In this document: positions 5,198-57,378 of the stretch, piece after piece | How the letters are laid out: every line of letters begins with the position of its first letter | Position numbering within the stretch: position 1 is the first letter of the stretch | Assembly (NCBI RefSeq): GCF_016903815.1 | Contig: NZ_CP069973.1 | Strand: one strand, 5' to 3' | Length of the DNA: 64,000 nucleotides | Source of the DNA: Escherichia coli | GTDB lineage: Bacteria > Pseudomonadota > Gammaproteobacteria > Enterobacterales > Enterobacteriaceae | Notes under the pieces: model-generated | Seen by the model: the letters and a program-made list of their open reading frames with translations, nothing else | Told to the model about the DNA's origin: nothing | Database searches by the model: none | Translations under genes and position numbers: made by a program

Positions 5198-6051
5198 TGG
5201 CATTATTACTGGAGCCACTGCAGTTCACCTTTATGAGTCACGCACTGCTGATTTCACTGGTAGTTTCCATACCCTGTGCGCTGCTGTCGGTCTTTCTGGT
5301 CCTGAAAGGTTGGGCACTGATGGGTGACGCGATGAGTCATGCGGTTTTTCCTGGCATCGTGCTTGCCTGGATTCTGGGGTTACCTCTGGCTACAGGGGCA
5401 TTTATCGCCGGAGTATTCTGCGCGGTGGCGACGGGATACCTGAAAGACAACAGCCGAATCAAGCAAGATACAGTGATGGGGATTGTTTTTTCTGGCATGT
5501 TTGCCGCAGGTCTGATCTTGTATATTGCAGTCAAACCAGACATACATCTTGACCATATTCTTTTCGGCGACATGCTCGGGGTAACCATCGGCGATATAAT
5601 CCAGACGATGATTATTGCCGGGCTGGTTACACTTGTTATTAGCGTAAAATGGCGGGATTTTTTGCTGTTCAGCTTTGATTATCAACAGGCGCAGGTAAGC
5701 GGTTTGCATACGCGATGGCTGCATTATGGGCTGCTGTGCATGGTTTCCCTGACCATTGTGGCGACGCTGAAAGCAGTAGGTATCATTCTCTCCATTTCTC
5801 TGCTCATTGCGCCTGGCGCCATTGCGGTACTCCTGACACAACGCTTTCATATTGCACTCCTACTGGCGACTGGCATATCGGTAATAGTCTCAATGACTGG
5901 TGTTTGGCTGTCCTTTTTTATCGACAGCGCACCAGCTCCGACGATTGTCGTCTTATTCGCGGTTGTGTTCATCATGACGTTTACCGTTATCAGTTTCAAC
6001 GCACGCACAAAGGGAAACGCTCATAGACAGGATCTGTTATCCCCCAATTAG
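5194..6051 (+). CDS. sitD: Mn/Fe ABC transporter permease SitD
   Basis: 285-aa membrane protein paralogous to SitC; 4-nt overlap with sitC. Confidence 0.85.
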   Translation: MMALLLEPLQFTFMSHALLISLVVSIPCALLSVFLVLKGWALMGDAMSHAVFPGIVLAWILGLPLATGAFIAGVFCAVATGYLKDNSRIKQDTVMGIVFSGMFAAGLILYIAVKPDIHLDHILFGDMLGVTIGDIIQTMIIAGLVTLVISVKWRDFLLFSFDYQQAQVSGLHTRWLHYGLLCMVSLTIVATLKAVGIILSISLLIAPGAIAVLLTQRFHIALLLATGISVIVSMTGVWLSFFIDSAPAPTIVVLFAVVFIMTFTVISFNARTKGNAHRQDLLSPN

Positions 6052-40865: not shown

Positions 40866-41021
40866 TTACTCCTCAGGTTCGTAAGCTGTGAAGACAGCGA
40901 CCTCCGTCTGGCCGGTTCGGATTCGTACCTCGCAGAGGTCTTTCCTCGTTACCAGTGCCGTCACTATGACGGTTAAACAGATGACGATCAGGGCGATTAA
41001 CATCGCCTTTTGCTGCTTCAT
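40866..41021 (-). CDS. hokD: Hok-family toxin HokD (RelF)
   Basis: Minus-strand translation MKQQKAMLIALIVICLTVIVTALVTRKDLCEVRIRTGQTEVAVFTAYEPEE (51 aa), not in the ORF track. Confidence 0.85.
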   Translation of the reverse strand: MKQQKAMLIALIVICLTVIVTALVTRKDLCEVRIRTGQTEVAVFTAYEPEE

Positions 41022-44300: not shown

Positions 44301-44717
44301 TGTTAACAATAGCCTGCTTCTCCGTGCCTTTCGGCACGTAAGAGGCTAACCTACATGTGTCTAGCATGAAATTGGCCTCAGATTAATGTTAAGCGTCTTG
44401 CAGGACGCGTAATGTTAACTGGGGCTTTTCTCTATCTGCCTTTGGTGTTCGTGCCCGAGGCAGATAGCCTCAAGCACCCGCCGTGATTCTACAAAAACAT
44501 TACCCACCTTTCCAGCAATTCACAACAACTCCATGCAAATAGTAAGTAGAATAATAAGTTATTAGTATTAGCAATTTACTTAGTTTCTAATTTGTGCCAA
44601 TGATTTTCATTTTTGCATGAAAAATACCTTAACATTTTATATTTACTTACTATTTGTAAGCCCCATCAGTTCTTTCTGATGGCGGCTGGTATTTCAGTTC
44701 CAGATATAGTATATGCT

Positions 44718-45746
44718 TTACGCCTTAATAGGGTTAATCACATTTCCGCTATCCGTACCATAGTATTTTTTTGTAGTCATGCCTTGTTTATAATAATCAT
44801 TTAACAGTTTGAGAAAGTTTCTTCCTTGCCTCTCATCTTCTATGACTAATTTACCATGCTCATTGGTCTTAAACTCTTCGTTCTGAAACATTTTTAGCAC
44901 ATCATTCATAGCTTGAACATCATTCTTTTCCAGAACCGTATGGTTACCTTTCTCAGCGATATGAGTGAGAATTTTTCTCAGTGATGGCTTATGAAGAATA
45001 GCTTGTTCAATAACATCTAAACCTTCAATAAGATCAAGTTCTTTAATTGTATTTAATGTTTTTTGTGCAGCTTCTGTAAACTCAACCTCCAAGCCTACAA
45101 TAGCCTCAAAACTTTTCTTATGAAATACATAAAATTGATCTTTTATATAAATACAATCGATTTTGTCATCAAAATTGACTGCGCTGCCATCAAATGATCT
45201 TAACTCTTTATCTGTTTTATCAAACAAAGCGAATACGCGCTGAGTCATATTTTGTGGTTCATTTGTTGTGACTTTCCCCCTGCTGATTTTTCGGAAAGAA
45301 TAAGTGACGTCAGCCCCCTTTTGGACTTTAATACAATAGGCCCACAAATCATTCTGAACCTCAGCAAGAGAGGTAAGTACAACTGGTTTATCATTCTTTA
45401 TATCGTTATTAATAACTTTTGAAAACGATATCGCGTTATTCATAGCATAGGCATAAATTTTATTATCAATATCATCATCAATAACAGTATGCTTTTTCAT
45501 CACAATATCATCTTTCGAAGCATGAGAAATAATCTGGTTTGATAAAGTATACTTAAAAAATTTAGCAATATCTGGAGCGATTGGAGCTTTAATGATTTTA
45601 AAATCGAATTTATCAACAACTCTTGCGGTTCTACTCATACCCGCTTTAAGATGTCTAGTAATGAAATACAACGATATTTTCGCCGCATCATCATCCTTAA
45701 GTTGCTCAGCATACTCTAATAATTCTTCAAGCTTTAACATTTTCAT
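44718..45746 (-). CDS. Soluble partner protein of candidate defense operon (KwaB-like by architecture, unverified)
   Basis: 342-aa Lys/Asp-rich AT-rich ORF; start overlaps the stop of the upstream membrane-protein gene (ATGA). Confidence 0.5.
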   Translation of the reverse strand: MKMLKLEELLEYAEQLKDDDAAKISLYFITRHLKAGMSRTARVVDKFDFKIIKAPIAPDIAKFFKYTLSNQIISHASKDDIVMKKHTVIDDDIDNKIYAYAMNNAISFSKVINNDIKNDKPVVLTSLAEVQNDLWAYCIKVQKGADVTYSFRKISRGKVTTNEPQNMTQRVFALFDKTDKELRSFDGSAVNFDDKIDCIYIKDQFYVFHKKSFEAIVGLEVEFTEAAQKTLNTIKELDLIEGLDVIEQAILHKPSLRKILTHIAEKGNHTVLEKNDVQAMNDVLKMFQNEEFKTNEHGKLVIEDERQGRNFLKLLNDYYKQGMTTKKYYGTDSGNVINPIKA

Positions 45747-46357
45747 TCCTTATGGGATTCAGCATAAAAAAGTTTTGGGCCCACGTCCTCAACATCAAGA
45801 AGATCATCTTCCTCCAAATACTTTGATTTAGTCAAAACCATACCAGTGCGTTTTTTGTCGCTTTCTAAATCCAAATATGTAACTTGATATAAAGTATAAT
45901 TAATACTTATTGTAGGATTTATAAGTATCATGCTTGAATTAATATATATTAAAGCCGTTACCGTTAACAATATTGCTATAGGTATAACATTAGTTAAAGT
46001 GGATAGATCCTGAAATACAAACGGAATTATATATGTAAAAAGATAGCTTATTGATTCATTGTTTTTATTTTCAATATCTATAACTCTTACAGTTCTACCA
46101 CTAGTGGCGCATCGACGTTTTATATTTTTTAAAAAAATTGTTAATCCTACAATACCAAATAATGATAATACACCAATGACACTGACCGCGCCAAAGTATT
46201 TAAAGAAAATAGTTAATGATTCAACACTTATACCTTTCCAATTTAAATAGCTTCTATAAGTATACAATTGCACAAAACACATGATAAAGAATAGGGGAAG
46301 GTATGACACTATAAATAGCGAAACTCTAGCACCTAAATGTAGTTTATTTACTCTCAT
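45743..46357 (-). CDS. Four-helix membrane protein of candidate defense operon (KwaA-like by architecture, unverified)
   Basis: 204-aa ORF with four hydrophobic stretches (about residues 12-32, 55-76, 103-115, 124-140) and an acidic C-terminal tail. Confidence 0.5.
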   Translation of the reverse strand: MRVNKLHLGARVSLFIVSYLPLFFIMCFVQLYTYRSYLNWKGISVESLTIFFKYFGAVSVIGVLSLFGIVGLTIFLKNIKRRCATSGRTVRVIDIENKNNESISYLFTYIIPFVFQDLSTLTNVIPIAILLTVTALIYINSSMILINPTISINYTLYQVTYLDLESDKKRTGMVLTKSKYLEEDDLLDVEDVGPKLFYAESHKE

Positions 46358-46565: not shown

Positions 46566-47252
46566 TCACTCCTTCTCTTCTTTATCGTAGTGGAGTTGAC
46601 CAATTTTGATAAGAGGGCGTCCCTGAGATTTGCGGTGTAGATTGGTATCGCGCAGAGAATACACACAGCCACAATATTCCTGCTGATAGAATTTTTCGCG
46701 CTTGCTGATTTCAATCATGCGGGACGAGCCGCCCTGCTTGCGCCAGTTATAATCCCAGTACACCATGCCCGGATAATGCGCGACGGCTCGCCGCCCACAG
46801 TCGTTAACCTGCTGCATATTTTTCCAGCGTGAAATGCCCAGTGAACTGCTGATCACACTGAAACCATTTTCAGCAGCGTACAGCGCTGTCCGCTCAAAAC
46901 GCATGTCAAAACACATGGTACAACGGATCCCCCTCTCGGGCTCCCATTCCATTCCTTTGGCACGTTCAAACCAGTTGTCTGTGTCGTAATCAGCATCAAT
47001 AAATGGCACGCCGTGTTGTTCAGCAAAGCGAATATTCTCATCCTTACGAATTAAATACTCTTTCTGAGGATGAATGTTCGGGTTGTAGAAAAAGATGGTA
47101 TAGTCGATTCTCGAGGCCTGAAGTGCCTCCATCACTTCACCGGAACATGGAGCACAGCAAGAGTGCAGTAGTAGTTTGTTTGCCCCGTTTGGGAGCTCCA
47201 ATTTAGGCCGTTTGAAATCAGCAATAGTCATAAATATTTTTATTGGGGTCAT
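46566..47252 (-). CDS. DUF208 / QueH-like protein (putative epoxyqueuosine reductase family)
   Basis: [11 protein letters not shown] and FFYNPNIHP motifs plus additional Cys (CTMC, CGC) as recalled for the QueH/DUF208 family. Confidence 0.6.
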
Positions 47253-49631: not shown

Positions 49632-50039
49632 ATGGATACAAGAACCCTGGGCCAGCGAGTTCTGGCGCGACGAAAAGAATTACGCTTAACACAACGAGAA
49701 GCCGCGCGCCTCGCTGGAGTTGCTCACGTCACAATTTCACAATGGGAAAGAGACGAAACCCAGCCAGTCGGAAAACGATTGTTTGCTTTAGCGGATGCTC
49801 TGAAGTGCTCACCTACATGGCTAATGTTTGGTGACGAAGACAAGGCACCAGTGCCTGCACAAGAACTTCATGTGGAAACAGAGCTAACTCCCAACCACAA
49901 AGAATTGATCGAATTATTCGATGCTCTTCCATCTTCCGAGCAGGAAGCCTTGCTGTCTGAAATGCGCGCAAGAGTAGAAAACTTCAACAAACTCTTCGAA
50001 GAAATGCTTAAAGCGCGTAAAAATAAATCAATAAAATAA
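49632..50039 (+). CDS. dicA: HTH-XRE repressor DicA
   Basis: 135-aa ORF ...LTQREAARLAGVAHVTISQWERDETQPVGKRLFALADALKCSPTWLMFGDED... Confidence 0.9.
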   Translation: MDTRTLGQRVLARRKELRLTQREAARLAGVAHVTISQWERDETQPVGKRLFALADALKCSPTWLMFGDEDKAPVPAQELHVETELTPNHKELIELFDALPSSEQEALLSEMRARVENFNKLFEEMLKARKNKSIK

Positions 50040-50207: not shown

Positions 50208-50363
50208 ATGGATACTATCGATCTTGGCAACAACGAATCTCTGGTGTACGGCGTGTTTCCAAACCAGGACGGCACGTTCACCGCAATGACGTATACCAAA
50301 AGCAAAACGTTTAAAACCGAAAATGGTGCCCGTCGCTGGCTGGAAAGAAACTCAGGTGAGTGA
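50208..50363 (+). CDS. ydfA: Small prophage protein YdfA
   Basis: MDTIDLGNNESLVYGVFPNQDGTFTAMTYTKSKTFKTENGARRWLERNSGE (51 aa). Confidence 0.8.
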   Translation: MDTIDLGNNESLVYGVFPNQDGTFTAMTYTKSKTFKTENGARRWLERNSGE

Positions 50364-50364
50364 T

Positions 50365-50940
50365 ATGGATTTCGACACAATCATGGAAAAGGCTTACGAA
50401 GAATACTTCGAAGGCCTTGCCGAAGGCGAAGAAGCTCTCAGCTTCAGTGAGTTTAAACAGGCACTCAGAATAAGAATGTGCTCTCACAATGACGCGGAGC
50501 ACAAATATGAGAAGCAAAATCAGACCGCAGAAAATTTTGTTCTGGAACCCGGAGAAACGCTTTTCAAAATTCCCGTTACGTGCCCCATTTGCGGTTTTAC
50601 ATCAGAAGAACTTGACGACTCCTGTAACAATCAGGAAACAACCAAGTATGTCGAAGATGATACCGAGTGCGCACGAAGAACGATTATATCCACGAGTCCA
50701 AACTCCAGGACCAATAAATCTCACTTTGAGAGGGTGATTAATCCACTCCCCCAAACCAATAAAAAAGATGCCGGAGGACAAAAAACCCAATGGAACAACG
50801 GGATATCTGTCAAAAAAAGACGTTCCATTAAAGACAAACAACGCAGCGCCAACAACTGTAAGCGCTTTATACCAGTAATCAATTTTCATGTTCTTAAGCG
50901 GATTTATTGGTGGTTGCGACATTGCTTAATGAATCCTTAA
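50365..50940 (+). CDS. YdfB/YdfC-region protein, continuous 191-aa reading frame
   Basis: Starts MDFDTIMEKAYEEYFEGLAEGEE (YdfB-like); with zinc-ribbon-like CPICG and basic C-terminus. Confidence 0.5.
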   Translation: MDFDTIMEKAYEEYFEGLAEGEEALSFSEFKQALRIRMCSHNDAEHKYEKQNQTAENFVLEPGETLFKIPVTCPICGFTSEELDDSCNNQETTKYVEDDTECARRTIISTSPNSRTNKSHFERVINPLPQTNKKDAGGQKTQWNNGISVKKRRSIKDKQRSANNCKRFIPVINFHVLKRIYWWLRHCLMNP

Positions 50941-51198
50941 AACTGTGGTGATTTTAAGGATACCACCTCGCCTGACGTGGTTAAAAGCAGGCACACAACA
51001 CGAAAGCGCACGGCGAAGTTCGTCTCACTGTACGGTGTCGTTAAATTTAATTCGACCGTGCGCTTCCGGTTGTGGCAACCCGCGAAATGGCGCGGCGGTA
51101 AGTATGGCGGGGTTATTCCTTCCCCGTTGAGGACACCGAGTTGTCAGGTTGACCATACGCTTAAGTGACAACCCCGCTGCAACGCCCTCTGTTATCAA

Positions 51199-51256
51199 TT
51201 TTCTGGTGACGTTTGGCGGTATCAGTTTTACTCCGTGACTGCTCTGCCGCCGTTTT
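51199..51256 (+). ncRNA. dicF: DicF small regulatory RNA
   Basis: tttctggtgacgtttggcggtatcagttttactccgtgactgctctgccgcc followed by a T-run; matches the DicF sequence from memory. Confidence 0.8.
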
Positions 51257-51426: not shown

Positions 51427-51615
51427 ATGAAAACGTTATTACCAAACGTTAATACGTCTGAAGGTTGTTTTGAAATTGGTGTCACTATCAGTAACCCTGT
51501 ATTTACTGAAGATGCCATTAACAAGAGAAAACAAGAACGGGAGCTATTAAATAAAATATGCATTGTTTCAATGCTGGCTCGTTTACGTCTGATGCCAAAA
51601 GGATGTGCACAATGA
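51427..51615 (+). CDS. dicB: Cell division inhibitor DicB
   Basis: MKTLLPNVNTSEGCFEIGVTISNPVFTEDAINKRKQERELLNKICIVSMLARLRLMPKGCAQ (62 aa). Confidence 0.85.
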   Translation: MKTLLPNVNTSEGCFEIGVTISNPVFTEDAINKRKQERELLNKICIVSMLARLRLMPKGCAQ

Positions 51616-51803
51616 ATTCAGCATTTGCGCTTGTTCTGACAGTTTTTCTTGTTTCCGGAGAGCCAGTTGATATTGCAGTCAGTGTTCACAGGACAATGCA
51701 GGAGTGTATGACTGCAGCAACCGAACAGAAAATTCCCGGTAACTGTTACCCGGTCGATAAAGTTATTCACCAGTATAATATCGAAATCCCGGCAGGTCTT
51801 TAA
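51612..51803 (+). CDS. ydfD: Small prophage protein YdfD
   Basis: MNSAFALVLTVFLVSGEPVDIAVSVHRTMQECM... (63 aa), overlapping the dicB stop. Confidence 0.8.
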   Translation: MNSAFALVLTVFLVSGEPVDIAVSVHRTMQECMTAATEQKIPGNCYPVDKVIHQYNIEIPAGL

Positions 51804-51896
51804 AACAGTTCCGTAATAAATATCCGGTTTCATTCTTATATGCCAGCAATGGCAGGGATTTGTTCATCCTTAAATCTGTCATGAGGTTAAAACAAA

Positions 51897-54368
51897 ATGA
51901 GTAAAGTCTTTATTTGCGCCGCTATTCCTGACGAACTGGCAACAAGGGAAGAAGGCGCTGTGGCTGTAGCCACAGCCATTGAAGCTGGCGACGAACGCCG
52001 TGCTCGAGCAAAATTTCACTGGCAATTCCTGGAACATTATCCGGCTGCTCAGGACTGCGTTTATAAATTTATTGTCTGCGAGGATAAACCTGGCATACCC
52101 CGCCCTGCCCTCGATTCATGGGATGCTGAATATATGCAGGAAAACCGCTGGGATGAGGAGTCTGCTTCTTTTGTCCCGGTTGAGACTGAATCCGATCCGA
52201 TGAACGTCACTTTTGACAAGCTGGCCCCTGAAGTACAGAACGCTGTCATGGTTAAGTTCGACACATGTGAAAACATCACCGTTGATATGGTTATTAGCGC
52301 ACAGGAATTGTTGCAGGAAGACATGGCAACATTCGACGGACATATCGTTGAAGCGTTGATGAAAATGCCAGAAGTTAACGCCATGTATCCGGAGCTTAAG
52401 TTGCACGCCATTGGGTGGGTTAAGCATAAATGTATTCCTGGTGCTAAATGGCCCGAAATTCAGGCAGAGATGCGCATCTGGAAAAAACGTCGCGAAGGTG
52501 AACGCAAGGAAACCGGAAAATACACGTCTGTTGTTGATCTCGCCCGCGCCAGAGCCAATCAACAGTACACTGAAAATTCAACAGGAAAAATCAGCCCGGT
52601 CATTGCTGCCATTCATCGCGAATACAAGCAGACATGGAAAACACTGGATGACGAACTGGCCTACGCTCTCTGGCCTGGTGATGTGGATGCCGGAAACATT
52701 GACGGCAGCATCCATCGCTGGGCAAAAAATGAAGTTATCGATAACGACCGCGAAGACTGGAAGCGTATCTCGGCATCAATGCGCAAACAGCCTGATGCCC
52801 TTCGCTACGACCGCCAAACTATTTTTGGCCTTGTCCGTGAACGTCCGATCGACATTCACAAAGATCCCGTAGCACTGAACAAATATATCTGCGAATACCT
52901 GACGACAAAGGGCGTGTTTGAGAATGAAGAAACAGACCTGGGCACTGTTGATGTTCTCCAGTCATCAGAAACACAAACTGATGCAGTGGAAACTGAGGTA
53001 TCTGATATCCCAAAAAATGAAACCGCGCCGGAAGCTGAACCATCTGTAGAGCGTGAGGGGCCGTTCTATTTCCTCTTCGCAGATAAGGACGGAGAAAAAT
53101 ACGGTCGCGCAAACAAACTTTCTGGTCTGGATAAGGCACTGGCTGCTGGCGCCACTGAAATCACAAAAGAAGAATATTTTGCCCGAAAAAATGGCACATA
53201 CACGGGCTTACCGCAAAATGTAGATACCGCTGAAGATTCAGAACAACCAGAGCCGATGAAAGTTACCGCTGACGAAGTAAACAACATTATGCAGGCAGCC
53301 AATATCATCCAGCCTGACGCCGATAAGTTGCTTGCTGCATCACGTGGTGAATTTGTTGAAGGGATTAGTGACCCGAATGATCCGAAATGGGTTAAGGGGA
53401 TCCAGACCCGCGATTCTGTGAACCAGAACCAGCATGAATCGGAACGGAACTACCAAAAAGCGGAACAAAACAGCCCAAATGCGTTACAAAACGAGCCAGA
53501 AACGAAACAGCCTGAATCAGTGGCGCAACAGGAAGTGGAAAAAGTCTGCACCGCCTGCGGTCAGACCGGCGGCGGCAACTGCCCTGATTGTGGCGCGGTA
53601 ATGGGCGACGCAACATACCAGGAAACATTCGATGAAGAGTATCAGGTTGAAGTTCAGGAAGATGATCCGGAGAAAATGGAAGGCGCTGAACATCCACACA
53701 AGGAGAACACTGGCGGCAATCAGCATCACGATAGCGATAATGAAACTGGCGAGACGGCAGATCACTCAATTAAGGTGAACGGTCATCACGAAATCACATC
53801 CACCAGCAGGACGTGTGACCATCTAATGATCGACCTTGAAACCATGGGAAAAAATCCTGATGCCCCGATCATCTCAATAGGTGCAATATTTTTCGATCCG
53901 CAAACCGGAGATATGGGACCGGAATTTAGTAAGACTATCGATCTGGAAACTGCTGGCGGAGTCATTGATCGGGACACCATTAAATGGTGGCTTAAGCAAT
54001 CACGCGAAGCGCAATCTGCCATTATGACCGATGAAATCCCGTTAGATGATGCACTGTTACAATTGCGGGAATTTATCGACGAAAACTCCGGTGAATTTTT
54101 TGTTCAGGTCTGGGGAAATGGAGCCAACTTCGACAACACGATTTTGCGCCGTTCATACGAACGGCAGGGGATCCCCTGCCCGTGGCGTTACTACAACGAT
54201 CGCGATGTACGCACAATCGTTGAGCTGGGGAAAGCCATAGACTTCGATGCCAGAACGGCTATTCAATTCGAAGGTGAGCGCCATAATGCACTTGATGACG
54301 CCCGTTACCAGGCAAAATACGTTTCAGTTATCTGGCAAAAACTGATCCCGAGTCAGGCTGATTCTTAA
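51897..54368 (+). CDS. Prophage exonuclease-family protein (YdfE-like N-terminus, DnaQ-like 3'-5' exonuclease C-terminal domain)
   Basis: 823-aa ORF; C-terminal DLETMG...[13 protein letters not shown] resembles the DEDDh exonuclease fold; acidic low-complexity middle region. Confidence 0.65.
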
Positions 54369-54440: not shown

Positions 54441-54692
54441 ATGAGCGAAGTAATCATGATTGTCTCTCCCGGCAAATGGGTATCCGAAGAGCAGTTAATT
54501 GCGCTGAAAGGAATAAAAAAAGGTACGTTAAAAAAGGCCCGGGAAAAATCGTTTATGGAAGGAAGGGAATATAAGCATGTCGCTCATGACGGTATGCCAT
54601 GGGATAACAGTCCATGCTTTTACAACCTGGAAGAAATTGATCGCTGGATTGAGCGCCAGGCATCAGCAAGACCAAGACGTCATCTTACTTGA
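54441..54692 (+). CDS. Excisionase-like small DNA-binding protein
   Basis: 83-aa ORF immediately upstream of the integrase region; Xis-like character. Confidence 0.45.
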   Translation: MSEVIMIVSPGKWVSEEQLIALKGIKKGTLKKAREKSFMEGREYKHVAHDGMPWDNSPCFYNLEEIDRWIERQASARPRRHLT

Positions 54693-54792
54693 CTAAAAGC
54701 CACACTAACGTAACCGGCTCATTTAAACCGTCTGGTCTGTTTCCTCCGGCTCTACAAAAATAATGTCCATCATTTTTAATGGACACTATCGT

Positions 54793-55440
54793 ATGAAACA
54801 CCGGACCTGGATCACTGAAGCTTTACGTCTTCACTTTGAAGAACATTTACCCCGGGTTGTGGCCGGGCGTCGCCTGGGTGTACCAAAATCAACAGTTTGT
54901 AGTATGTTCGTGCGCTTTCGGAGAGCTGGCCTTTCGTGGCCTTTGCCCGCAGGCATGTCGGAGCAGGAACTTGATGCCTGCCTTTACGGACAATTTTCCA
55001 CGGTACCAGTCGTACGTCCTGAAAGCACCGTTATATCCGAAGCCCCCGTGGTAAAAAAACGTCCCCGGCGGCCCAACTTCCCTTATGAGTTTAAAATCGC
55101 CTTAGTGGAGCAGTCACTGCAGCCCGGAGCCTGTGTGGCGCAGATCGCCCGGGAAAACGGAATCAACGATAACCTGCTCTTCAACTGGCGCCATCAATAC
55201 CGGAAAGGTGGCCTGCTGCCTTCCGGAAAAAATATGCCGGCACTGCTTCCCGTGACGTTAACGCCGGAGCCGGATAATAAAATCCCGGCCCCCGCACAGG
55301 AACCAGAGCAGATAAATACACCGTCCGACAGTCTGTGTTGTGAGCTGGTTCTGCCGGCCGGAACTCTCAGGCTTAAAGGTAAACTGACGCCGGCGTTATT
55401 ACAGACACTTATCCGCGAAATAAAAGGGAGCAGCCACTGA
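54793..55440 (+). CDS. IS66-family accessory protein TnpA
   Basis: HTH-containing ORF with KRPRRPNFPYEFKIALVEQSL...; start uncertain (54763 or 54793). Confidence 0.7.
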   Translation: MKHRTWITEALRLHFEEHLPRVVAGRRLGVPKSTVCSMFVRFRRAGLSWPLPAGMSEQELDACLYGQFSTVPVVRPESTVISEAPVVKKRPRRPNFPYEFKIALVEQSLQPGACVAQIARENGINDNLLFNWRHQYRKGGLLPSGKNMPALLPVTLTPEPDNKIPAPAQEPEQINTPSDSLCCELVLPAGTLRLKGKLTPALLQTLIREIKGSSH

Positions 55441-55787
55441 TGATATCTCTCCCTGCAGGTTCGCGTATCTGGCTGGTTGCAGGTATCACCGATATGCGAA
55501 ATGGCTTTAACGGCCTGGCATCAAAAGTTCAGAACGTCCTGAAGGATGACCCGTTCTCCGGACACCTGTTCATCTTCCGCGGACGCCGGGGTGACCAGAT
55601 AAAAGTGTTGTGGGCTGACAGTGACGGACTGTGCCTCTTCACCAAACGCCTGGAGCGGGGCCGCTTCGTCTGGCCAGTCACCCGTGACGGCAAGGTGCAC
55701 CTTACTCCGGCTCAGTTATCCATGCTTCTTGAAGGTATCAACTGGAAGCACCCGAAACGAACGGAACGCGCTGGAATCCGCATATAA
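55440..55787 (+). CDS. IS66-family accessory protein TnpB
   Basis: 115-aa ORF MISLPAGSRIWLVAGITDMRNGFNGLA... Confidence 0.85.
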   Translation: MISLPAGSRIWLVAGITDMRNGFNGLASKVQNVLKDDPFSGHLFIFRGRRGDQIKVLWADSDGLCLFTKRLERGRFVWPVTRDGKVHLTPAQLSMLLEGINWKHPKRTERAGIRI

Positions 55788-55806
55788 CCCGTTGTAAAGT
55801 GAGGAT

Positions 55807-57378
55807 ATGGACACCTCACTTGCTCATGAGAACGCCCGCCTGCGGGCACTGTTGCAGACGCAACAGGACACCATCCGCCAGATGGCTGAATACAACCGCC
55901 TGCTCTCACAGCGGGTGGCGGCTTATGCTTCCGAAATCAACCGGCTGAAGGCGCTGGTTGCGAAACTGCAACGTATGCAGTTCGGTAAAAGCTCAGAAAA
56001 ACTTCGTGCAAAAACCGAACGGCAGATACAGGAAGCACAGGAGCGAATCAGCGCACTTCAGGAAGAAATGGCGGAAACGCTGGGTGAGCAATATGACCCG
56101 GTACTGCCATCCGCCCTGCGCCAGTCTTCAGCCCGTAAACCGTTACCGGCCTCACTTCCCCGTGAAACCCGGGTTATCCGGCCGGAAGAGGAATGCTGTC
56201 CTGCCTGTGGTGGTGAACTCAGTTCTCTGGGATGTGATGTGTCAGAGCAACTGGAGCTTATCAGCAGCGCCTTTAAGGTTATCGAAACACAACGTCCGAA
56301 ACAGGCCTGTTGCCGGTGCGACCATATCGTGCAGGCACCAGTACCTTCAAAACCCATTGCACGCAGTTATGCCGGAGCGGGGCTTCTGGCCCATGTTGTC
56401 ACCGGGAAATATGCAGACCATCTGCCGTTATACCGCCAGTCAGAAATATACCGTCGTCAGGGAGTGGAGCTGAGCCGTGCCACACTGGGGCGCTGGACAG
56501 GTGCTGTTGCTGAACTGCTGGAGCCGCTGTATGACGTCCTGCGCCAGTATGTGCTGATGCCCGGTAAAGTCCATGCTGATGATATCCCCGTCCCGGTCCA
56601 GGAGCCGGGCAGCGGTAAAACCCGGACAGCCCGGCTGTGGGTCTACGTCCGTGATGACCGTAACGCCGGTTCACAGATGCCCCCGGCGGTCTGGTTCGCG
56701 TACAGTCCGGACCGGAAAGGTATCCATCCACAAAATCACCTGGCCGGTTACAGCGGTGTGCTTCAGGCCGATGCTTACGGTGGTTACCGGGCGTTATACG
56801 AATCCGGCAGAATAACGGAAGCCGCGTGTATGGCTCATGCCCGGAGAAAAATCCACGATGTGCATGCAAGAGCGCCCACCTACATCACCACGGAAGCCCT
56901 GCAGCGTATCGGTGAACTGTATGCCATCGAGGCAGAGGTCCGGGGCTGTTCAGCAGAACAGCGTCTGGCGGCAAGAAAAGCCAGAGCCGCGCCACTGATG
57001 CAGTCACTGTATGACTGGATACAGCAACAGATGAAAACACTGTCGCGTCACTCAGATACGGCAAAAGCGTTCGCATACCTGCTGAAACAGTGGGATGCAC
57101 TGAACGTGTACTGCAGTAATGGCTGGGTGGAAATCGACAACAACATCGCAGAGAACGCCTTACGGGGAGTGGCCGTAGGCCGGAAAAACTGGATGTTCGC
57201 GGGTTCCAACAGCGGTGGTGAACATGCGGCGGTGTTGTACTCGCTGATCGGCACATGCCGTCTGAACAATGTGGAGCCAGAAAAGTGGCTGCGTTACGTC
57301 ATTGAACATATCCAGGACTGGCCGGCAAACCGGGTACGCGATCTGTTGCCCTGGAAAGTTGATCTGAGCTCTCAGTAA
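55807..57378 (+). CDS. IS66-family transposase TnpC
   Basis: 523-aa ORF with N-terminal leucine zipper, CxxC zinc-finger region and DDE core. Confidence 0.85.

Follow-up and report, generated by a model that had tools for sequence, protein, structure and literature searches.

The exonuclease gene and its K-12 counterpart

This report deals with an exonuclease gene of 823 codons in a Qin-like lambdoid prophage of Escherichia coli, contained in a 64,000-nucleotide (nt) stretch of contig NZ_CP069973.1 (assembly GCF_016903815.1). This whole stretch is called the window in the following, and positions are counted from its first letter. The gene occupies positions 51897–54368 on the plus strand, starts with ATG and is uninterrupted. 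As judged by alignment and by chromosomal position it is the intact form, and the orthologue, of ydfE of strain K-12. Its product appears to join a C-terminal 3'-5' exonuclease domain related to DexA of phage T4 to a long N-terminal scaffold which is common to the recombination nuclease RecE. The gene and the parts of its product are arranged as follows, where dN/dS stands for the ratio of nonsynonymous to synonymous substitution rates and AF2 for AlphaFold2.

51883..51886, plus strand: ribosome-binding site GAGG, read from the sequence, 10 nt before the ATG
51897..54368, plus strand: exonuclease coding sequence, 823 residues, from the mechanical list of open reading frames (ORFs); RefSeq WP_000048363.1 'exonuclease', the intact YdfE, named exoO in UTI89
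51897..52562, plus strand: N-terminal module, residues 1–222, with an alpha/beta part (1–100) and a helical part (105–222), corresponding to the K-12 YdfE fragment
52629..52916, plus strand: helical domain, residues 245–340, common with RecE residues ~278–345 (AF2, BLASTP against K-12 RecE, partial match to NCBIfam PRK09709, dN/dS 0.06–0.12)
53049..53201, plus strand: small beta-hairpin/helix domain, residues 385–435, with the motif GPFYF...GRANK (AF2, motif scan)
53313..53771, plus strand: linker region, residues 473–625, like that of K-12 RecE (BLASTP, module BLAST, megablast matches to recE at query nt 1423–1867)
53343..53369, plus strand: motif RGEFVEGIS, residues 483–491 (motif scan)
53547..53591, plus strand: zinc-ribbon-like CxxC-x7-CxxC, residues 551–565, common with RecE residues 517–531 (BLASTP, motif scan)
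53820..54335, plus strand: DEDDh 3'-5' exonuclease domain, residues 642–813, Rv2179c-like and T4 DexA-like (Pfam, PDB sequence search, alignment)

An initial annotation of the window had described a single uninterrupted gene and a K-12 copy truncated by an insertion sequence (IS), and both statements held. When the complete E. coli genomes were searched with megablast, the DNA was found to be 100% identical over 2472 nt to NZ_CP023820.1 of E. coli 7/2, where the copy is annotated as the coding sequence WP_000048363.1 'exonuclease', in agreement with the ORF list. The protein also gives a full-length match to PHROG 2082 'exonuclease'. The K-12 copy is 99.9% identical, but in the megablast alignment it covers only query nt 1–767. 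It is annotated as an 'exonuclease' pseudogene without the C-terminus; directly behind it come remnants of an IS2 transposase gene (partial) and of an integrase gene (truncated), adjoining rspB. The intact gene of the window lies at the same chromosomal site, with int-rspB downstream and dicB-ydfD upstream in both strains. The K-12 pseudogene therefore resembles the window gene in its first 767 nt, its operon and its site, but nothing beyond codon 255 is left of it, so that the nuclease domain is missing too. A BL21 match named 'exonuclease VIII' (query nt 1–495) was considered as a fusion of the YdfE N-terminus to RecE and was rejected, as only a 498-nt pseudogene remnant is present there. 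In the literature searched, ydfE appears only as the pseudogene of the dicB transcription unit or as the entry 'exoO' in a UTI89 gene list; with no more than a stump present in the laboratory strain K-12, the intact protein has escaped study.

The C-terminal exonuclease domain

The last ~190 residues are predicted to form a 3'-5' exonuclease of the DnaQ/T4 DexA type, and this enzyme class is secure. The initial annotation had suggested such an activity from the DEDDh-like motifs DLETMG...HNALDD and had proposed a profile search for an exonuclease domain as a check. This search found the domain: Pfam PF16473 (Rv2179c-like) matches residues 642–813 with an E value of 3.1e-67 and 226.1 bits against a cut-off of 27, covering model positions 2–177 of 177, and Pfam PF00929 (RNase_T) gives a weak match to the protein. 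The motifs themselves are located at residues 645–651 (IDLETMG) and 796–801 (HNALDD). In an alignment of the domain with DexA and five stand-alone phage homologues (the phages being those of Escherichia, Vibrio, Pseudomonas and Bacillus), residues D646, E648, D746, H796 and D801 proved to be invariant. They align with D7, E9, D119, H186 and D191 of DexA, so that the DEDDh set of the window protein matches the catalytic residues of DexA as listed in PMC12153337. Because all five residues are invariant, the domain is predicted to be a catalytically complete DEDDh exonuclease.

Among solved structures, the sequence search matched only the entries 8KEL and 8KEN of T4 DexA (exonuclease A), with an E value of 1.9e-6 for the single sequence. 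Rv2179c was not retrieved at E<=0.01 in the PDB sequence search, even with a profile. DexA belongs to the same DEDDh family and all its catalytic residues align, but the identity is about 25%, and DexA is a stand-alone protein of 227 residues with extra loops, whereas the window domain forms the C-terminus of an 823-residue protein. DexA W152 aligns with a tyrosine (Y766) and DexA S87 with a proline of the window protein. As the family holds a DNA enzyme (DexA) as well as an RNA enzyme (Rv2179c), the substrate is not fixed by the sequence alone.

A scaffold common to RecE

The first ~630 residues, a scaffold which had gone unnoticed in the initial annotation and which makes up two thirds of the protein, are predicted to be non-catalytic and common to RecE. 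AlphaFold2 prediction of residues 1–472 on 32 diverse sequences yielded four confident domains (predicted local distance difference test, pLDDT, above 90) with disordered linkers between them, namely an alpha/beta domain (1–100), two helical domains (105–222 and 245–340) and a small beta-hairpin/helix domain (385–435). The latter occurs in many relatives and is absent from K-12 RecE. The N-terminal module of residues 1–222 probably corresponds to Pfam YdfE_N (PF27430) and YdfE_C (PF27432), as suggested by the family names; both matches are precomputed on cluster representatives 99–100% identical to the first 470 residues. A fold search with this module gave no informative relative.

Similarity to RecE begins after the N-terminal module. 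Residues 246–625 match positions 271–602 of the 877 positions of the NCBIfam RecE model NF007259 with 277 bits, below the equivalog cut-off of 1269. By BLASTP residues 262–625 align with residues 278–591 of K-12 RecE (E=6e-61, 39% identity), and the linker reaches 67% identity to RecE residues 454–591 in module BLAST. This homology stops just before the RecE nuclease domain, which Pfam places at RecE residues 615–850, and the linker of residues 473–625 looks like a recombination joint for the exchange of modules. The window protein and RecE (exodeoxyribonuclease VIII of the Rac prophage of K-12) have in common the helical domain, the RGEFV(D/E)GIS motif, the zinc ribbon, the acidic linker and the position in the early-left operon. 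In contrast, the first ~245 residues of the window protein are unrelated to the RecE N-terminus, and the corresponding Pfam family PF06630 (Exonuc_VIII) gave no match in the window protein at E<=1. The PD-(D/E)XK 5'-3' nuclease of K-12 RecE (PF12684/DUF3799, residues 615–850) is absent as well, and a nuclease family of opposite polarity is found instead. Furthermore, the RecE gene is adjoined by recT, the window gene by xis. The N-terminal region of RecE is without known function, though full-length RecE improves linear-linear recombination (2023 review, PMC11611040).

A modular family in temperate phages

A word-indexed homologue search with residues 1–470 returned near-identical E. coli proteins only. 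With HMMER, residues 1–640 were searched exhaustively against 1.84 billion cluster representatives (50% identity), which yielded 247 relatives at E<=0.001, and defined modules were then compared by BLAST with these 247 representatives. Two kinds of N-terminus occur among the relatives, the YdfE type of the window protein and the RecE type (PF06630, which is present in K-12 RecE, in the DEDDh-bearing representative P0141 and in P0237). They are combined with at least four C-terminal modules: the RecE PD-(D/E)XK nuclease, the DEDDh exonuclease, a Rad52-fold domain and a domain of unknown kind. The third kind has no Pfam match and bears the PHROG label 'exonuclease' (phrog_7838/2489), and the fourth kind is phrog_26058. 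All pairings of the two N-termini with the RecE nuclease and with the DEDDh domain were found among the representatives. Thus WP_000102136.1 of E. coli AR_0114 carries a RecE N-terminus (59% identity to RecE residues 50–591) in front of a DEDDh domain 99% identical to that of the window protein. For the Rad52-like relatives, sequence searches of the PDB gave no match, either from a single sequence or from a profile, and Pfam Rad52_Rad22 gave only E=0.013; their fold was settled by fold comparison.

Irrespective of the kind of C-terminal module, the disordered linker immediately in front of it shows a recurrent short motif, RGE[FY][VI][ED]GIS with the variant G.GKFSIDGL, which may be a docking motif for a partner. 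The neighbouring partner gene varies with the C-terminus: a RecT gene comes next in the case of a YdfE-type protein with the RecE nuclease, and in the DEDDh forms inspected excisionase and/or integrase genes come directly next. The finding of the same scaffold on a 5'-3' nuclease, a 3'-5' nuclease or an annealase-like domain is the main reason for placing the window protein in DNA recombination and end processing. The DEDDh version occurs in most E. coli and is missing from K-12. A wider proposal, which we put forward only tentatively and consider rather doubtful, is that enterobacterial temperate phages have joined one shared scaffold to a 5'-3' nuclease, a 3'-5' nuclease or a Rad52-fold annealase, and that the DEDDh version would serve an annealase-independent, 3'-end-directed pathway of recombination, repair or exclusion, its partner being recognised via scaffold and motif. 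In any case the intact gene shows the unexplained 600-residue N-terminal region of RecE, a workhorse of recombineering, to be a reusable scaffold. This combinatorial use by RecE and YdfE makes the function of the RecE N-terminus experimentally approachable, via binders of the shared domains and of the motif.

Operon context and phage homologues

The local gene order is a Cro-like gene on the opposite strand, a DicA-like gene, ydfA, a truncated ydfB, DicF, dicB, ydfD, the exonuclease gene, xis, an IS66-family element and int. The neighbours which matter for the exonuclease gene are listed here.

49632..50039, plus strand: DicA-like repressor gene, at the head of the operon region (ORF list, annotation)
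51201..51252, plus strand: DicF small RNA, upstream in the exonuclease transcription unit (Rfam RF00039, 72.5 bits, E=1.5e-14)
51427..51803, plus strand: dicB and ydfD, immediately upstream of the exonuclease gene (annotation)
54441..54692, plus strand: excisionase gene xis, immediately downstream of the exonuclease gene (ORF list, annotation)

Among the large genes of the dicA-ydfA-DicF-dicB-ydfD operon, the exonuclease gene comes last. This is an early-left operon, the site of recombination genes in lambdoid phages, and in the Rac prophage recE-recT are found at the same relative position. Promoter and terminator scans gave nothing above the shuffled background, and no tandem repeats were found in or around the exonuclease gene.

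A full-length homologue is present in 17 phage records. These include the isolated temperate phages HannyBb, with 98.8% identity and the same gene order, and Evi, with 84% identity. About 730 further phage records have only the domain of ~180 residues, which is present in 749 phage records altogether. Such stand-alone Rv2179c-like exonucleases, for example those of phages mEpX2, Flotzy and phiKp_30, are 54–59% identical to residues 634–823 of the window protein and are likewise encoded in the early-left operon, but they consist of 180–190 residues without the scaffold. In mEpX2 the order is erf-ssb-exo-abc2, a recombination module in which the gene is flanked by ssb and by an anti-RecBCD gene; elsewhere the surroundings of the stand-alone gene were uninformative.

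Prevalence and selection

By megablast, 4799 of the 5426 complete E. coli genomes contain some part of the gene. Coverage reaches 80% or more in 3536 genomes, at a median of two places in each. It is thus among the most widespread E. coli prophage genes, often in several copies per genome. In this sense the gene is ordinary: it already has an annotation, it is extremely common, PHROG and Pfam both list it, and it appears in the supplementary table of a published paper. Comparison with two diverged alleles, that of O157:H7 and that of the more distant strain A36, gave an overall dN/dS of 0.22–0.25. Values of 0.06–0.12 were obtained for the folded N-terminal domains and of 0.3–0.4 for the linkers; the exonuclease domain gave 0.17 in the comparison with the A36 allele. 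The gene is under purifying selection, and the overall ratio together with the lower values in the folded domains excludes a chance reading frame. The idea of a decaying pseudogene was rejected on prevalence and dN/dS. As the synonymous divergence from O157 differs strongly between segments, with 0.016 in the nuclease domain and 0.22 in the N-terminus, the gene itself is a recombination mosaic.

Proposed function and alternatives

The reading we favour, and regard as somewhat probable, is that the gene encodes a DexA-like 3'-5' exonuclease on a RecE-family scaffold which is made from the prophage early-left operon and acts on DNA 3' ends in phage recombination or repair. Expression would be expected when the prophage is derepressed, because the gene is distal in the DicA-repressed early-left operon (ydfA-DicF-dicB-ydfD-exo-xis-int). 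The C-terminal 190 residues would then work as a two-metal DEDDh 3'-to-5' exonuclease, with D646, E648, D746 and D801 holding the metals and H796 acting as the general base, and might trim DNA 3' ends while the phage recombines, repairs or replicates its DNA, in the manner of DexA in T4. The scaffold consists of the YdfE-type N-terminus, the helical domain, the small beta domain and the disordered acidic linker with RGEFVEGIS and the zinc ribbon, the same scaffold carrying the PD-(D/E)XK 5'-3' nuclease in RecE. It may bring the nuclease to those DNA ends, or to that partner, which RecE and the annealase-fused relatives also use. The analysis establishes the intact ORF, the identity of the domain and its catalytic residues, the modular homology, the place in the operon, the prevalence and the purifying selection; we infer DNA as the substrate, the recombination role and the targeting by the scaffold, the recombination role being derived from context and architecture only.

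Several points weigh against this proposal. A 3'-5' exonuclease is unable to make the 3' tails needed for single-strand-annealing recombination. None of recT, bet and erf lies between the exonuclease gene and xis, no annealase is annotated anywhere in the prophage, and at five other loci of the DEDDh form no annealase gene precedes the next excisionase or integrase gene. Searches with the scaffold found no informative structural relative, and its targeting role is for this reason a conjecture; recent recombination, and not a common function, may lie behind the close similarity between the linker and RecE. In the literature searched no biochemical or genetic data on the window protein were found. 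Finally, the Pfam family takes its name from an exoribonuclease, and the name given by the Prokaryotic Genome Annotation Pipeline (PGAP) is often '3'-5' exoribonuclease'.

This last point leads to the view that the protein is an exoribonuclease like Rv2179c, which would trim or degrade RNA 3' ends, for instance in the maturation or turnover of DicF or of host transcripts after induction. Rv2179c, the eponym of the family, is a 3'-5' exoribonuclease of M. tuberculosis, many RefSeq copies bear the corresponding name, and DicF is encoded 645 nt upstream in the same operon. The RefSeq names, however, are transferred from the family name and not from tests; the nearest solved relative by sequence is a DNA exonuclease, Rv2179c not being retrieved; the domain replaces a DNA nuclease on the RecE scaffold; and the stand-alone homologue of mEpX2 sits between ssb and the anti-RecBCD gene. 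All this makes RNA quite an unlikely substrate. Counter-defence genes occur in lambdoid early-left operons, which is a circumstantial point for an anti-defence factor destroying host immune nucleic acid, such as the multicopy single-stranded DNA (msDNA) of retrons or linear oligonucleotide signals; an anti-defence role, next to one in recombination, had been suggested in the initial annotation. The PHROG, Pfam and NCBIfam scans, however, gave no match to known anti-defence proteins, and the sole published claim for a relative is the opposite, i.e. defence (PMC12153337), so that such a role appears very improbable.

That claim was made by Kang et al. (NAR 2025, PMC12153337), who solved DexA and proposed bacterial DexA homologues as a defence ('HREX') against phages with 5-hydroxymethylcytosine (5hmC) DNA. 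Their plasmid-borne EcD (HAK9828821.1), the one stand-alone E. coli DexA homologue tested, is reported to protect against T4 and to digest T4 DNA, and WP_000048363.1, exactly the window protein, is found in their Table S3 of bacterial DexA homologues, where it is listed and not studied. By analogy, the window protein could be an anti-phage nuclease of the prophage which digests the incoming modified-cytosine DNA of T-even phages. Both proteins are E. coli DexA homologues, and the catalytic site of the window protein is predicted to be intact; a Kiwa defence pair is present in the same prophage, and the preprint 10.1101/708461 reports a protective effect of DicB, encoded in the same operon, against phage infection of E. 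coli. Against this stand the location of the gene in an operon with a DicA-type repressor gene at its start rather than in a constitutive moron position, its retention in isolated temperate phages at the position of phage recombination genes, and the finding that the PADLOC defence-system models gave no match to the window protein. The residues point in the same direction, since those which the paper links to 5hmC recognition and to the dimer state are not reproduced: the tetramer-forming D90 of DexA is lost in EcD and retained in the window protein as D718, and of the 5hmC-recognising W152 and D169 the former aligns with Y766 and the latter falls in a loop without reliable alignment. EcD is small and stands alone, and its ends as derived from the primers (MIDTET... 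and ...TIPETY) differ from those of the window domain. When the 20-mer of the published EcD reverse primer was searched against genome contigs, one match was obtained, in an Acetatifactor metagenome-assembled genome, with no related ORF. We consider a defence function of this kind unlikely for the window protein, and caution against transferring to it, before a test, either the label 'HREX defence' or the name 'exoribonuclease'.

Other features of the prophage

The Qin-like prophage extends over window positions 5700–58700. It has kept the full set of lambda-like head, tail and lysis genes, broken by IS1 and IS200 copies, whereas Qin of K-12 is without the full lambda-like head and tail gene set. 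Relative to K-12, ydfB is truncated and ydfC absent (50363–51200), and the ydfB/ydfC interval contains an ORF of 205 residues (50323–50940, plus strand) which is also found as a hypothetical protein in phage HannyBb. The IS66-family element at 54763–57378 (plus strand) lies between xis and int, comprises tnpA, tnpB and an ISCro1-type transposase gene and has a G+C content of 55–58%; the insertion probably uncouples int from the operon.

The Kiwa pair is complete and occupies 44718–46357 on the minus strand, in an island of 32% G+C within the prophage.

45743–46357, minus strand: KwaA (PADLOC, E=1.3e-101)
44718–45740, minus strand: KwaB (PADLOC, E=5e-158)

Between kwaB and a partial ISNCY transposase gene a sok antitoxin RNA was detected (44308–44479, minus strand; Rfam, 105.6 bits). 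It is ~3.3 kb from the annotated hokD (40866–41021) and may mark a second, unannotated hok/sok locus. The early-right genes of the prophage include, as an unusual cargo, a gene for a QueH-like epoxyqueuosine reductase (46566–47231, minus strand), which could be related to 7-deazaguanine metabolism.

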